Source of the DNA: a virus
Taxonomy: Duplodnaviria > Heunggongvirae > Uroviricota > Caudoviricetes
Virus record (IMG/VR): IMGVR_UViG_2602041549_000008
Reading direction: 5' to 3' (one strand)
DNA length: 8,346 nucleotides
A program made the position numbers and the translations under genes. Below are positions 2,938 through 7,913 of this stretch, in pieces. The notes beneath the pieces were generated by a model, which ran no database searches, had not been told where the DNA came from, and was given only the letters and a program-made list of their open reading frames with translations. Within the stretch, counting starts at the first letter, position 1. Each line of letters opens with the position of its first letter.

Positions 2938-3735
2938 ATGCTGGCAAGAGGTAAGACTAACTTAAAGATCGAAGAAATACGGATGCATAAACATCATGAG
3001 ATTCATAGGGTTAAGCCTCTTATGCCAGCTTTGTGTCGTATCCGTCAGGGAAAGAAAGTTATCAATTGGGAGACGCATACTTTAACTGTTGATAATAATC
3101 AAATAATATTATTTCCTTGTAGTTATGAATTTTATATTGAGAATTATCCTGAAGCAGGGCTTTATCTTGCAGAAATGCTTTACTTACCCATTGATTTAAT
3201 TGAGAGGTTCCAAAAACTTTATACGGTAACTGATCAAATACGTAACAAAACAAGTTTCTTTTTACCTCAGAATCCTGAGTTAATATATTGTTGGGAGCAA
3301 CTAAAAACATCTGTTTCCCGAGGCTTCTCAACTAAAATTCAGGAGCACTTAGCAATGGGCGTTCTACTTTCGTTAGGAGTGAATCATGTTAATCATTTAC
3401 TTTTATCATATAGTAAACAATCATTGATAAGTCGTTGTTATAACCTGCTGCTATCCGAACCCGGCACAAAATGGACAGCAAACAAGGTTGCACGATATCT
3501 CTACATTTCTGTTTCTACATTACATCGCCGTCTAGCAAGCGAGGGGGTAAGTTTCCAAAGTATACTGGACGATGTGAGGTTAAATAATGCGTTGTCTGCT
3601 ATACAAACGACGGTAAAACCTATAAGCGAGATTGCCAGAGAAAATGGTTATAAGTGTCCTTCTCGTTTTACTGAAAGATTTCATAATCGTTTTAATATAA
3701 CACCAAGAGAGATAAGAAAAGCTTCCAGAGAGTAA
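2938..3735 (+). CDS. ybcM: AraC/XylS-family transcriptional regulator, 265 aa
   Basis: Starts 10 nt after the ybcL stop, so likely co-transcribed. The C-terminal 100 aa ([45 protein letters not shown]...[20 protein letters not shown]) has the two helix-turn-helix units of AraC-family proteins. The true start could be Met16 (2983); the ORF-track start was kept. Confidence 0.88.
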
Positions 3736-3953: not shown

Positions 3954-4405
3954 ACCTCCCACAAGATGGTATCAAATTGCATCGCGGTAACTTCACCGCT
4001 ATCGGTCGGCAGATCCAGCCTTATCTGGAGAACGGCAAATGCTTTCGCATGGTGCTTAAACCGTGGCGCGAGAGACGCAGTCTTTCCCAGAATGCACTCA
4101 GCCACATGTGGTACAGCGAAATCAGTGAATACCTCATCAGCAGGGGTAAAACGTTCGCCACTCCAGCTTGGGTAAAAGATGCTCTCAAACACACATATCT
4201 CGGTTATGAAACCAAAGACCTGGTTGATGTCGTAACCGGTGATATCACCACTATCCAGTCGTTACGCCATACCTCCGATCTTGATACCGGAGAGATGTAT
4301 GTCTTCCTGTGTAAGGTTGAAGCCTGGGCGATGAATATTGGTTGCCATCTGACTATTCCGCAGAGCTGCGAGTTCCAGCAGCTCCGCGACAAGCAGGAGG
4401 CGTAA
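3950..4405 (+). CDS. ybcN: NinB/Orf-family protein (lambdoid recombination-associated; YbcN-like DNA-binding protein), 151 aa
   Basis: GTG start at 3950 with GGAGG (3939-3943) upstream. The protein [15 protein letters not shown]...[16 protein letters not shown]... shares the R-S-L-x-Q-N...W core that I recall from lambda NinB. Confidence 0.88.
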
Positions 4406-4575
4406 TGGCTACACCGCTTATTCGTGTCATGAACGGACACATCTACAGAGTACCAAATCGTCGTAAGCGTAAACCTGAGCTGAAGCCATCCGAAATACCA
4501 ACACTGCTCGGGTATACCGCCAGCCTGGTTGATAAAAAATGGTTGCGACTGGCAGCAAGGAGGAGTCATGGCTGA
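4405..4575 (+). CDS. ninE: NinE-family small basic protein, 56 aa
   Basis: ATG 4405 overlaps the ybcN stop (TAATG); AGGAGG at 4395-4400. The product [28 protein letters not shown]...[13 protein letters not shown] resembles lambda NinE (basic RKRKP motif, W-L-R). The ORF-track ORF from 4342 is an upstream extension of the same frame. Confidence 0.8.
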   Translation: MATPLIRVMNGHIYRVPNRRKRKPELKPSEIPTLLGYTASLVDKKWLRLAARRSHG

Positions 4576-5439: not shown

Positions 5440-5823
5440 ATGCGTGATATTCAGATGGTTCTTGAGCGTTGGGGAGCGTGGGCGGCTAATAATCATGAAG
5501 ATGTGACCTGGTCGTCCATTGCCGCCGGTTTTAAGGGATTAATTCCTTCAAAAGTAAAATCTCGCCCGCAATGTTGTGACGATGACGCGATGATCATTTG
5601 CGGGTGCATGGCCCGTCTGAAAAAGAACAACAGCGATTTGCACGATTTATTAGTAGATTATTATGTAGTCGGTATGACATTCATGTCACTGGCAGGTAAG
5701 CATTGCTGCTCTGATGGTTATATCGGGAAAAGGTTACAGAAGGCTGAGGGCATAATTGAAGGGATGTTAATGGCATTAGATATCCGGTTAGAGATGGATA
5801 TCGTTGTTAATAACTCTAATTAA
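5440..5823 (+). CDS. quuD: Q-family late-gene transcription antiterminator (phage 82/21-type Q), 127 aa
   Basis: ATG 5440 with GGAG 8 nt upstream. The product [22 protein letters not shown]...[17 protein letters not shown]...HCCSDGYIG has the Cys-rich zinc-binding pattern of 82-type Q proteins. It sits at the end of the nin block, directly upstream of the late/lysis region. The ORF-track start at 5425 is a TTG extension. Confidence 0.88.
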
Positions 5824-5856
5824 TATGCCAATTGTTTACTAAAAATTATTAAAAAT

Positions 5857-5874
5857 GGGGCGTTGCAACGCCCC
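5857..5874 (-). terminator. GC-rich palindrome GGGGCGTTGCAACGCCCC; candidate terminator for - strand transcription (nmpC) or part of the late-promoter/qut region
   Basis: Perfect 18-bp palindrome (7-bp GC stem, 4-nt loop). On the - strand it is followed by ATTTTTAATAATTTTT (reverse complement of 5841-5856). On the + strand it is followed by A-rich sequence, so it is unlikely to terminate + strand transcripts. Confidence 0.35.
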
Positions 5875-5962
5875 CAAAAATAAAGGGTAATATATAACAG
5901 AAGGTTTATATAGTTAGAAGCAAGGTTGTGCTCCTAAAGGAAGTGGCTTGAGGGAGCCACTT

Positions 5963-6002
5963 ATATGTTGGGGAGGCAAAGCCTCCCGCAACATATCTTT
6001 TT
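5963..6002 (+). terminator. Rho-independent terminator candidate between quuD and the 3' end of nmpC (possible late-leader terminator, tR'-like)
   Basis: Long interrupted hairpin ATATGTTG-GGGAGGC-AAA-GCCTCCC-G-CAACATAT (5963-5996) followed by CTTTTTC (T-run 5998-6002). Preceded by a second perfect 8-bp hairpin AAGTGGCT...AGCCACTT (5941-5962). Confidence 0.5.
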
Positions 6003-6012
6003 CGTAATCAGA

Positions 6013-7110
6013 TTAGAACTGGTAAACCAGACCTACAGCAACGATGTCATCAGTGCTTACACCGAGTGCTTTAGTGAAGTCATTTTTGTCAAGCAGGTTG
6101 ATTTTGTAATCAACGAAAGTAGACATATTTTTGTTGAAGTAATAGGTTGCACCTACATCAACATATTTGACTAAGTCCTGATCGCCCCATACTCCAAGAT
6201 CCTTACCTTTAGATTGCAGGTAAGCAACGGACGGACGCAGACCGAAATCGAACTGATATTGTGCAACAGCTTCGAAGTTTTGAGCTTTATTAGCAACGAA
6301 GTGATCAGCAAATACAGTCATATTCTGGGTTTCAGAATAGGTAGTGGCCAGGTAAATGTTGTTAGCGTCATATTTCAGACCTGCGGCCCAAACTTCTGCA
6401 TTTTTACCGGAAGCAAATACTTCAGGAAGAACTTTCCCTGCATTAACTTGAGTGTCGGTACGATCAGATTTCGCATAAGTTGCACCGATACCGAACCCTT
6501 CGTATTCATAGGTAGCAGAGAAACCGAAGCCATCACCGTTACCTTCGGTGTAGTTATCGAAATCGCTACGATCGTTTTTGCCTTGGTACTGAGCAGCAAA
6601 GTTCAGACCATCAACCAGACCAAAGAAGTCGTTGTTACGATAGGTTGCAACACCAGTGGTGCGACCAGTCATGAACACATCTGTTTGGGTCCAGGTATCG
6701 CCACCGAATTCTGGCAGTACGTCAGTCCACGCACCGATGTCGTATGCTACACCGTAGTTACGGCCGTAATCGATTGAGCCGTAGTCACCGAATTTCAGGC
6801 CTGCAAATGCAAGACGGGTTTTGTCTTTGGAGGAACCTTGAGATTCAGCGCGGTTGCCTTTGAATTCATATTCCCACTGACCGAAACCAGTCAGTTGATC
6901 GTTGATTTGGGTTTCACCTTTGAAGCCAAGACGGGCATAAGTAGTATCACCATCATCTGCATCATTAGAGGAGAAGTAGTGCTTAGCATTAACTTTCCCG
7001 TACAGATCCAGCTTGTTACTGTCTTTATTATAAATTTCAGCTGCCTGAGCAGACATCGCCATCAGTACTGATGCAGCTACAGCAGAAATTGCCACTGTTA
7101 ATTTTTTCAT
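6013..7110 (-). CDS. nmpC: General diffusion outer-membrane porin of the OmpC/OmpF/PhoE/NmpC (Lc) family, 365 aa precursor, apparently intact
   Basis: The - strand ORF has an N-terminal signal peptide [23 protein letters not shown] then the mature start [17 protein letters not shown], typical of enterobacterial porins. It ends in ...VGLVYQF, the conserved C-terminal Phe of beta-barrel outer-membrane proteins. The ORF-track start at 7170 adds 20 residues; the internal ATG at 7110 gives the canonical signal peptide. Confidence 0.9.
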
Positions 7111-7536
7111 CGTGAGCCCTTTTTTTGAACTATTATTAAAAAATGATGTCACTGCGCGATAAATATTCATCTAATCAATGTGATTATTTCAAGATGTAAG
7201 TTTTAGTTTCTCATTTAATTTGTGAAGTAGATCTCTATTTTTATCTGAACTTTTTCTATCGAAACCTATTTATGGCTCTTATTTGAACAAAAATAAACCT
7301 ATTAGCCAATTTATATTAACGGCTGTTATTTATAAGTGCTCTGTAATTTGAAGGTTCAATTTAAATCGGCTAAAAATAACACTGGAAATTATTTGTTGGT
7401 TATTTGTTGAGATTTGCTTATGTATTTGTAGTGGTGTTTTCAATACTCGGTAGCATTCTCGCAAATATCATTTTGTGGTTTACGTACGTAAAAACTTGGT
7501 TATGCTGTTAAGAGTGGTTACTTCGTCACACAGCTT

Positions 7537-7570
7537 AAACCCGCCGTCGAGCGGGTTTTTCCATTTTTTG
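7537..7570 (+). terminator. Strong Rho-independent terminator on the + strand, about 130 nt upstream of the holin gene
   Basis: AAACCCGC-CGTCGA-GCGGGTTT hairpin (stem 7537-7544 / 7551-7558, GC-rich core) immediately followed by TTTTTCCATTTTTT. Confidence 0.6.
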
Positions 7571-7697: not shown

Positions 7698-7913
7698 ATG
7701 AAATCCATGGATAAGTTAACAACGGGTGTCGCCTATGGCACCTCAGCAGGTAGTGCCGGTTACTGGTTTTTACAGCTGCTCGATAAAGTCACGCCCTCAC
7801 AGTGGGCAGCAATAGGTGTGCTGGGTAGCCTGGTATTTGGCCTGCTGACGTACCTGACAAACCTTTATTTCAAGATTAAAGAAGATAAGCGCAAGGCTGC
7901 GAGAGGTGAATAA
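7698..7913 (+). CDS. essD: Class II holin (phage 21 S-type pinholin), 71 aa, with dual-start motif (Met1/Met4)
   Basis: ATG 7698 preceded by GAGGTGGGG. The product [71 protein letters not shown] has two TM segments (Gly/Ala-rich TMD1, hydrophobic TMD2) and a charged C-tail. Met1 and Met4 (7698/7707) mirror the antiholin/holin dual start of phage 21 S. The stop overlaps the next start (TAATG). The ORF-track start at 7653 is an extension. Confidence 0.88.

Follow-up and report, generated by a model that had tools for sequence, protein, structure and literature searches.

The hairpin cluster between quuD and nmpC of a DLP12 prophage and its identity with the minus-strand small RNA IpeX

IpeX is a small RNA of the Escherichia coli cryptic prophage DLP12 and of phage PA-2, reportedly described by Castillo-Keller, Vuong and Misra in 2006. 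Several independent papers cite experimental post-transcriptional repression of the host porins OmpC and OmpF by the DLP12/PA-2 ipeX, and its discovery is traced to a multicopy suppressor of an assembly-defective OmpC. One review has IpeX transcribed from the phage porin promoter, within the porin transcript, and freed from it by processing. Reviews describe IpeX as acting without base pairing or not solely by base pairing, and on its dependence on Hfq the papers disagree.

Three other kinds of RNA provide useful comparisons. CpxQ and SroC are derived from the 3′ UTRs of mRNAs, with which they share a terminator, and they are released by processing. MicC, a small RNA of the core genome, represses ompC. 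Lambda 6S RNA and StxS are, like IpeX, short structured phage RNAs encoded beside the antiterminator gene Q, and StxS is also processed into a regulatory small RNA. These last two are plus-strand products that extend from the late promoter PR′ to the terminator tR′, whereas IpeX comes from the other strand and does not depend on Q; in DLP12 the leader equivalent to 6S RNA and StxS would start near position 7513 of the DNA considered here.

That DNA, which we call the window, is the whole stretch of 8,346 nucleotides that was analysed. A cluster of strong hairpins occupies positions 5824-6012, and a sequence-only reading had taken this interval for the late control region that follows Q in lambdoid phages. 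We conclude instead, with a probability of roughly 0.93, that it is the ipeX locus of a lambdoid prophage of the DLP12/PA-2 type, and that IpeX consists of the minus-strand tail of nmpC together with its terminator. The feature is therefore already known, as the published IpeX small RNA: in locus, strand, length, sequence and terminator the window copy is the same as that of DLP12 and PA-2, and nothing essential differs. No new account of the interval is needed; it encodes a published prophage RNA that would let a lysogen swap the host porin OmpC, a common phage receptor, for the porin of the phage.

Strand, ends and folding of the RNA

The window comes from DLP12, a prophage of E. coli, and carries nmpC in intact form. 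Many E. coli chromosomes, annotated "quuD" and "porin" at this place, match a 701-bp query over the interval with 100% identity, and the gene order ybcK ... rusA, ylcG, quuD, nmpC, essD, rrrD is common to the window and to the MG1655 record. The K-12 locus differs in that its nmpC carries an IS5 insertion, 58 bp upstream of the stop codon, and in four substitutions within the 189-bp gap between quuD and nmpC, which otherwise aligns without gaps (97.9% identity, BLAST, 192 nt). Three of these substitutions fall in hairpin loops and the fourth changes an A-U pair of a stem to G-U. K-12 coordinates were converted to those of the window by subtracting 568516. The genes that frame the interval, and the next one downstream on the plus strand, are as follows.

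5440-5823, plus strand: quuD, Q-type antiterminator, 127 aa (Pfam PF06530 over its full length, E 8.5e-54; RefSeq name in identical E. coli genomes)
6013-7110, minus strand: nmpC, porin, 365 aa (Pfam Porin_1, E 1e-156; the K-12 and PA-2 lc annotations also give 365 aa)
7698-7913, plus strand: essD, holin, the first late (lysis) gene (Pfam PF04971, E 2e-35; K-12 annotation)

The mechanical open reading frame of nmpC reaches 7170; a Shine-Dalgarno sequence and a signal peptide are found at the 7110 start. The Pfam class of essD is that of the phage-21-type holins.

In MG1655, ipeX has been catalogued at 574365-574531 on the reverse strand, with a length of 167 nt (supplementary table, PMC8313858). 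Mapped to the window, this is a segment of the minus strand that begins with the first base of the stop codon of nmpC (6013-6015) and ends just past the GC hairpin, and all five stem-loops of the interval lie inside it. The RefSeq record of MG1655 leaves ipeX unannotated, though micF and micC are annotated, and an Rfam search, at the gathering threshold and with E up to 10, returned nothing meaningful (the best match, TarB, scored 19.6 bits against a threshold of 80). With neither a RefSeq annotation nor an Rfam match, ipeX will keep being rediscovered by automated scans. Its elements are listed here.

5849-6015, minus strand: IpeX small RNA, 167 nt, the nmpC 3′ UTR (catalogued coordinates, K-12 identity, fold z -9.3)
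5851-5874, minus strand: intrinsic terminator of nmpC/IpeX (stem 5874-5868 with 5863-5857, loop UGCA, U-run 5855-5851)
5878-5910, minus strand: invariant, mostly unpaired core, IpeX nt 106-138, antisense to the ompC leader from -31 to -3
5891-5912, minus strand: weak A-U hairpin, -1.3 kcal/mol, with the anti-Shine-Dalgarno-like loop ACCUUCUG
5914-5937, minus strand: stem-loop of 8-9 bp, stronger on the minus strand (-9.1 kcal/mol) than on the plus strand (-5.2)
5941-5962, minus strand: perfect 8-bp hairpin, arms 5941-5948 and 5955-5962
5963-5996, minus strand: long bulged hairpin at the IpeX 5′ end (repeat finder, folding)

In a terminator scan the GC hairpin was called on just one strand, the minus strand, where it reads GGGGCGTTGCAACGCCCC with ATTTTTAATA after it; the downstream tract is also given as AUUUUUAAUA. 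Published Term-seq data agree with this call. Minus-strand 3′ ends at MG1655 574367/574366, with the sequence ...GGGGGCGTCTCAACGCCCCATTTTT (curated table, Adams et al. 2021), correspond to window 5851/5850, directly past GGGGCGUCUCAACGCCCCAUUUUU and no more than two bases from the catalogued end of ipeX. The earlier proposal that the interval has to terminate the convergent nmpC transcript is thus confirmed. A second minus-strand 3′ end, at MG1655 574476 (window 5960), follows the long hairpin and lies just inside the 5′ arm of the 8-bp hairpin, and in the same K-12 table no plus-strand 3′ ends are listed within the interval. These data come from K-12, where nmpC is split by IS5 and the origin of the transcript differs from that in the intact allele of the window. 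The GC palindrome is, as had been described, flanked on both sides by sequence that is A-rich on the plus strand and U-rich on the minus strand. Of the "bidirectional terminator zone" that had been suggested for this region, the half that is shown is termination of the minus strand by the palindrome; with its A-rich plus-strand flanks and a call on the minus strand only, the palindrome does not qualify as a single hairpin that terminates in both directions.

A promoter scan of the minus strand upstream of 6015 found no sigma-70-like promoter for a separate ipeX transcript, which fits the literature view that IpeX is produced from the porin promoter by processing. IpeX therefore resembles CpxQ and SroC in its position past a stop codon, in sharing the terminator of the porin mRNA upstream and in having no detectable promoter of its own, as is the case for a small RNA derived from a 3′ UTR. 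Based on these observations, minus-strand transcription of nmpC would pass the stop codon at 6013-6015, cross four stem-loops and stop at the GC hairpin (5874-5857) and its U-run. The 167-nt tail, from window 6015 to 5849, is IpeX, which would be cut out of the porin transcript by the processing that the literature describes. The hairpins supply a stable 5′ end, the body and the terminator of this molecule, and leave between them the invariant, A/U-rich and largely unpaired core at window 5878-5910.

The folding of the interval is in keeping with a minus-strand product. The minus strand from 5845 to 6015 folds with -62.4 kcal/mol, compared with -32.0 +/- 3.3 for shuffled sequences (z -9.3), and none of 200 shuffles was as good; for the plus strand from 5824 to 6012 the z-score is -4.7. 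The expectation that a short structured RNA is encoded here is borne out by ipeX, with the correction that this RNA is transcribed from the minus and not the plus strand. The three structures that had been noticed were all recovered at their coordinates by a repeat finder and by folding, and each, folded alone, has an energy well beyond that of its shuffles. The GC palindrome is perfect, with arms at 5857-5865 and 5866-5874, and in the folded form 7 bp enclose a loop of 4 nt (-12.5 kcal/mol). The 8-bp hairpin is somewhat more stable as plus-strand RNA (-12.4 kcal/mol) than as minus-strand RNA (-10.4). The long hairpin, built from the nested arms 5963-5973/5986-5996 and 5971-5977/5981-5987, contains 15 bp and one bulge (-22.2 kcal/mol on either strand, z about -7); on the plus strand it is followed by a C and then by TTTTT at 5998-6002. 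Between these structures are two stem-loops that had not been reported, at 5914-5937 and 5891-5912, and the former is weaker on the plus strand because one of its pairs is G-U.

Conservation of the element and pairing of its core

The ipeX element is present in 2510 of 5426 complete E. coli genomes, in many IMG/VR contigs and in 36 phage records, all of which are Escherichia phages with a porin gene, including PA-2 and 434. Relative to PA-2 the gap of the window shows 97.9% identity over 192 nt. The layout of PA-2 and 434 is also that of the window, with ipeX between the porin gene and the Q gene and directly 3′ of the porin stop codon. A 20-mer scan of species-representative genomes matched E. 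coli and, apart from it, four MAG contigs, which were discarded as chance matches (5-62% identity over the element). One variant with a different 5′ junction (L125) was likewise set aside, as its junction is the end of an insertion sequence and not an independent ipeX.

For an analysis of variation, 128 copies were reduced to 39 distinct sequences, of which 27, 90-100% identical, were compared. Compensatory double changes were found at none of 46 pairs in these 27 homologues, and this is explained by their low divergence. Support for the structure comes, in place of covariation, from its energy and from the distribution of variation between loops and stems. Outside the search 20-mer, 13 of 85 paired positions vary among the 27 homologues as against 18 of 38 unpaired ones (Fisher p 3e-4). 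In the same set all six of the one-sided changes that preserve a pair produce G-U on the minus strand, and two stem transitions yield A-C there. An A/G polymorphism at IpeX nt 83, in the stem-loop at 5914-5937, preserves the pair on the minus strand only. Variation in the terminator is confined to the 4-nt loop in 11 homologues retrieved by BLAST, and among the 27 variants two of its stem pairs vary, in one sequence each. One lineage carries a C-to-G change in the hairpin at 5963-5996 that shifts the bulge and preserves the helix. The depletion of changes in stems, the G-U character of the one-sided changes that preserve a pair and the near-constancy of the terminator are three weaker signals, all of which fit an RNA made from the minus strand.

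The longest invariant run of the element, in the homologues retrieved by BLAST, is IpeX nt 109-139. This core is mostly unpaired in the predicted ensemble, and the opening of nt 110-124 would cost about 3.4 kcal/mol. On the plus strand, window 5878-5910 reads AAATAAAGGGTAATATATAACAGAAGGTTTATA, and its counterpart in the alignment is the stretch -31 to -3 of the MG1655 ompC leader, AAATAAAGG----CATATAACAGAGGGTTAATA.

The predicted duplex between the core and the ompC leader consists of helices of 9, 15 and 3 bp (27 bp in all) and has an energy of -26.7 kcal/mol. Its 15-bp contiguous helix covers the Shine-Dalgarno sequence of ompC, and a helix of this length was reached in 5 of 1000 mononucleotide shuffles. 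The local alignment score of IpeX against the ompC leader is 32, compared with 17.4 +/- 2.7 for dinucleotide shuffles, 3 of 2000 of which scored as high. Against the ompF leader the result is marginal (62 of 2000 shuffles), and in the alignment statistics for the leader of nmpC itself there is nothing. This pattern, strong for ompC, marginal for ompF and nil for nmpC, matches the reported genetics. The windowed hybridisation energy of IpeX at the ompC site was not better than that of shuffles (9 of 60). When the full-length IpeX was folded with either leader (ompC or ompF), the resulting duplexes spanned whole molecules and had no meaning; the pairing was assessed in their place by the contiguous helix and the alignment statistics. 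The longest exact Watson-Crick match between IpeX and ompC is 10 nt, so that a BLAST search with a word size of 11 would miss the pairing.

We regard it as an even bet that IpeX represses ompC by direct antisense pairing through its core, a proposal which contradicts the view, expressed in reviews, that no base pairing is involved. By this mechanism the core would pair with the ompC leader from -31 to -3, cover the ribosome-binding site and block translation, as MicC does at an overlapping site, and the lysogen would then exchange OmpC for the phage porin. The comparison with MicC is informative. Its site extends from about -47 to -14, with -26.5 kcal/mol, so that the two sites have the motif AUAUAAC in common, and the IpeX site adds coverage of the Shine-Dalgarno sequence. 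The two RNAs show no sequence relationship: MicC is transcribed from a promoter of its own and uses its 5′ end for pairing, whereas IpeX is a 3′ UTR product that would pair through an internal core. A core antisense to the ribosome-binding region of ompC would, if true, provide a simple and testable mechanism for IpeX.

The late promoter and alternative readings of the interval

The late promoter was placed by homology with the Stx phages. QuuD is 79-82% identical to the Q proteins of Stx1 and Stx2 phages. Three positions were mapped in these phages by Sy et al. (2020): the start of PR′ (dRNA-seq), the 3′ end at tR′, 258 nt further on (Term-seq), and an RNase E cleavage in GU/AUU at +173. In Sakai Sp5 these three mapped positions fit one start only, the A seven bases past TATCAT, and the same holds in Stx2 II. 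With this start, the -35 hexamer of the Sp5 promoter, TTTACG, overlaps the stop codon of Q, +173 falls in GUAUU and +258 is the end of the tR′ U-run. When the Stx Q/PR′ region was aligned locally with the window, the similarity in the Q coding sequence stopped at 5772; no part of the Stx promoter region aligned with 5824-6012, and PR′ together with the first hairpin downstream of it aligned with window 7478-7560, GTTTACGTACGTAAAAACTTGGTTATGCTGTTAAGAGTGGTTAC ... AAACCCGCCGTCGAGCGGGTTTTT. This block precedes essD by about 185 bp, is separated from quuD by nmpC and lies some 1.5 kb from the IpeX hairpin cluster. It comprises two elements.

7479-7513, plus strand: PR′ homologue, with -35 TTTACG at 7479-7484, -10 TATGCT at 7501-7506 and an inferred start near 7513 (alignment with Stx2 II and Sakai Sp5)
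7537-7569, plus strand: terminator-like hairpin with U-runs, candidate tR′ (terminator scan, leader fold; hairpin at 7537-7558)

The candidate tR′ hairpin is conserved with the first hairpin past PR′ in the Stx phages and in SfIV, and three phages with a porin gene, PA-2, 434 and 4A7, have an almost identical PR′ block. Two further phages show a comparable arrangement, in which the block does not adjoin Q and lies beyond cargo in reverse orientation: ev087 has a similar -35 block there, and SfIV has the segment that extends from the -10 end of the promoter through the first hairpin. K-12 Term-seq lists no 3′ end at the candidate tR′; the promoters concerned may be silent in K-12. The alignments suggest that the Q-dependent late promoter of DLP12 is at about 7479-7513, before essD, and that its transcript would start near 7513. 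They also lead us to conclude that nmpC and ipeX probably form a self-contained, reverse-oriented cargo unit inserted between Q and PR′. A cluster of hairpins just past a lambdoid Q is therefore not to be assumed to mark the late leader, since in this phage group reverse-oriented cargo may occupy the space between Q and PR′. A published reporter fragment of the DLP12 lysis promoter, designated "-121 to +650", was also considered for placing the start. Its forward primer is at 7038-7057 and its reverse primer at about 7802-7822, to which "-650 to +121" from the essD start codon is a better fit; the fragment does not fix the start.

These results bear on the reading with which the interval had been approached, namely that 5824-6012 holds PR′, the Q-utilisation site and the first late terminator, and yields a plus-strand leader like lambda 6S RNA or StxS whose transcription is modified by QuuD. 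It draws on the position of PR′ in lambda, 82, 21 and the Stx phages, where the promoter immediately follows Q or overlaps its end, and within the interval the plus strand folds better than chance, T5 follows the hairpin at 5963-5996 and a GTTTAC...TAAAAA string at 5834-5846 resembles the -35 block of PR′. Yet the cognate promoter block is at 7478-7560, distal to the cargo as in ev087 and SfIV, every RNA end mapped in the interval belongs to the minus strand, and it is this strand that the G-U pairs and the tail of the terminator suit. The statement that no convincing -35/-10 hexamers can be placed on the plus strand of 5824-6012 was itself correct: a scan found no promoter-like site (a weak test, as the validated Stx PR′, with 8/12, is also below the scan threshold), and the best manual match, 4/6 and 4/6, puts its -10 within the GC hairpin. 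Late control upstream of essD had been named in advance as the outcome that would count against this reading, and it is what homology, rather than experiment, now indicates. We consider a late leader in the interval very improbable. It is also improbable, if somewhat less so, that the interval contains only face-to-face terminators and stabilising hairpins of the nmpC 3′ UTR, from which an RNA without any regulatory role is released. The minus-strand terminator is demonstrated and a plus-strand one is plausible, and covariation is lacking, all of which such an arrangement would accommodate. It leaves unexplained why a 31-nt unpaired core, needless for a plain terminator, should be the most conserved part, and why this core should be antisense, to a degree equalled by so few shuffles, to the leader of the reported target; and it runs against the experimental repression of OmpC and OmpF by ipeX that several independent papers cite.

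Another proposal is compatible with IpeX and concerns the other strand: the hairpin at 5963-5996, with its T5, may be an additional plus-strand terminator of quuD and early-right transcription that shields nmpC from transcripts converging on it. If transcription were to stop at 5963-6002, the 3′ UTR of quuD would be antisense to the whole of IpeX. A 15-bp stem of -22.2 kcal/mol followed by one base and UUUUU, and the retention of the T-run as T4-T5 in homologues, speak for this role, which on the model we hold to be possible though doubtful, given that the base of the stem, next to a short U-run, is rich in A-U pairs, that the terminator scan made no call there and that K-12 Term-seq has no plus-strand 3′ end near MG1655 574517, where quuD may be silent. 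With IpeX as the preferred reading, a last feature of the plus strand deserves mention. An open reading frame at 5965-6174 (69 aa, "ORF1" of PA-2) is annotated in J02580 and in phage 434 and has a GGGAG motif 8 nt upstream of its ATG, from which it might be argued that the hairpins form the translation-initiation region of a real gene. The chance of this is negligible. The product has no Pfam match, and ORF1 was rejected as a gene on this ground and because 6 of 10 homologues, which retain the RNA elements, have indels or stops that disrupt its frame (5 of them after stops within 14 codons).

The late promoter and the slot after Q

Two features bear on the position of PR', the Q-dependent late promoter.
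7478-7569, plus strand: PR' homologue with its hairpin, the counterpart of the experimentally mapped PR' of Stx phages.
7537-7558, plus strand (2979-3003 and 868-892 in the Stx-phage sequences L004 and L006): conserved intrinsic-terminator-like hairpin, the first after the PR' start.

The homologue has a -35 of TTTACG and a -10 of TATGCT, with a putative start near 7513. Since this homologue lies at 7478-7569, the porin-ipeX unit is placed between Q and PR'. The same slot holds different cargo in reverse orientation in ev087 and SfIV, two further phages with a Q of this family; in ev087 the cargo includes a lipocalin gene. The terminator-like first hairpin downstream of the start is conserved in both DLP12 and the Stx phages, and in the latter the mapped PR' leader reportedly runs on to +258, beyond this hairpin. 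Ten bases past the quuD stop codon, at 5834-5846 on the plus strand, the string GTTTACTAAAAAT resembles the PR' block GTTTAC...CGTAAAAA and, very short as it is, may represent a scar of cargo insertion.

The IpeX core and the ompC leader

IpeX is a 167-nt sRNA from the nmpC 3' UTR (5849-6015, minus strand; nucleotides numbered from 6015 downward), and it contains one invariant segment.
5878-5910, minus strand: invariant IpeX core, nt 106-138, a near-copy in inverted form of the ompC leader.

The part of the ompC mRNA leader that is mirrored in this way extends from -31 to -3, and a match of equal or better score was obtained in 3 of 2000 shuffles. Modeling predicts that core and leader could form 27 bp, among them the Shine-Dalgarno sequence, and the predicted pairing region overlaps the site at which the sRNA MicC acts on the same leader. 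Reviews state that IpeX does not act through base pairing.

Transcript ends, variant loci and annotation

Published Term-seq data contain a second, "orphan" minus-strand 3' end at MG1655 574476, equivalent to 5960 in the window. This end is located 3 bases past the long 5' hairpin of IpeX and has no U-run; it probably marks an intermediate, some 56 nt long, of RNA decay or processing. E. coli Z1323HEC0355 (L008, 2190-2388) lacks quuD and the nin genes through a deletion, and ipeX with the porin gene comes immediately after ybcM; the IpeX sequence is kept as far as its terminator, just past which homology stops. In one variant, the IMG/VR contig L125, an insertion-sequence end replaces the nmpC 3' end together with IpeX nt 1-14, paralleling the loci of K-12 and phage 434, where IS5 has inserted into nmpC 58 bp before its stop codon.

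In the MG1655 RefSeq record (NC_000913.3; ipeX at 4366-4532 of our extract, L001) ipeX is without annotation, whereas micF and micC are annotated, and an Rfam search returned no family matching ipeX, which is therefore missed by annotation-based screens.

One further reading frame overlaps this region.
5965-6174, plus strand: 69-aa ORF antisense to the nmpC 3' end.

The PA-2 annotation names it ORF1, and that of phage 434 gives it as hypothetical; we rejected it as a gene, the frame being disrupted in 6 of 10 homologues. For nmpC itself (minus strand), the mechanically called ORF starts at 7170 and encodes 385 aa; the real start is 7110 (365 aa), as indicated by the K-12 and PA-2 annotations, the Shine-Dalgarno sequence and the signal peptide.
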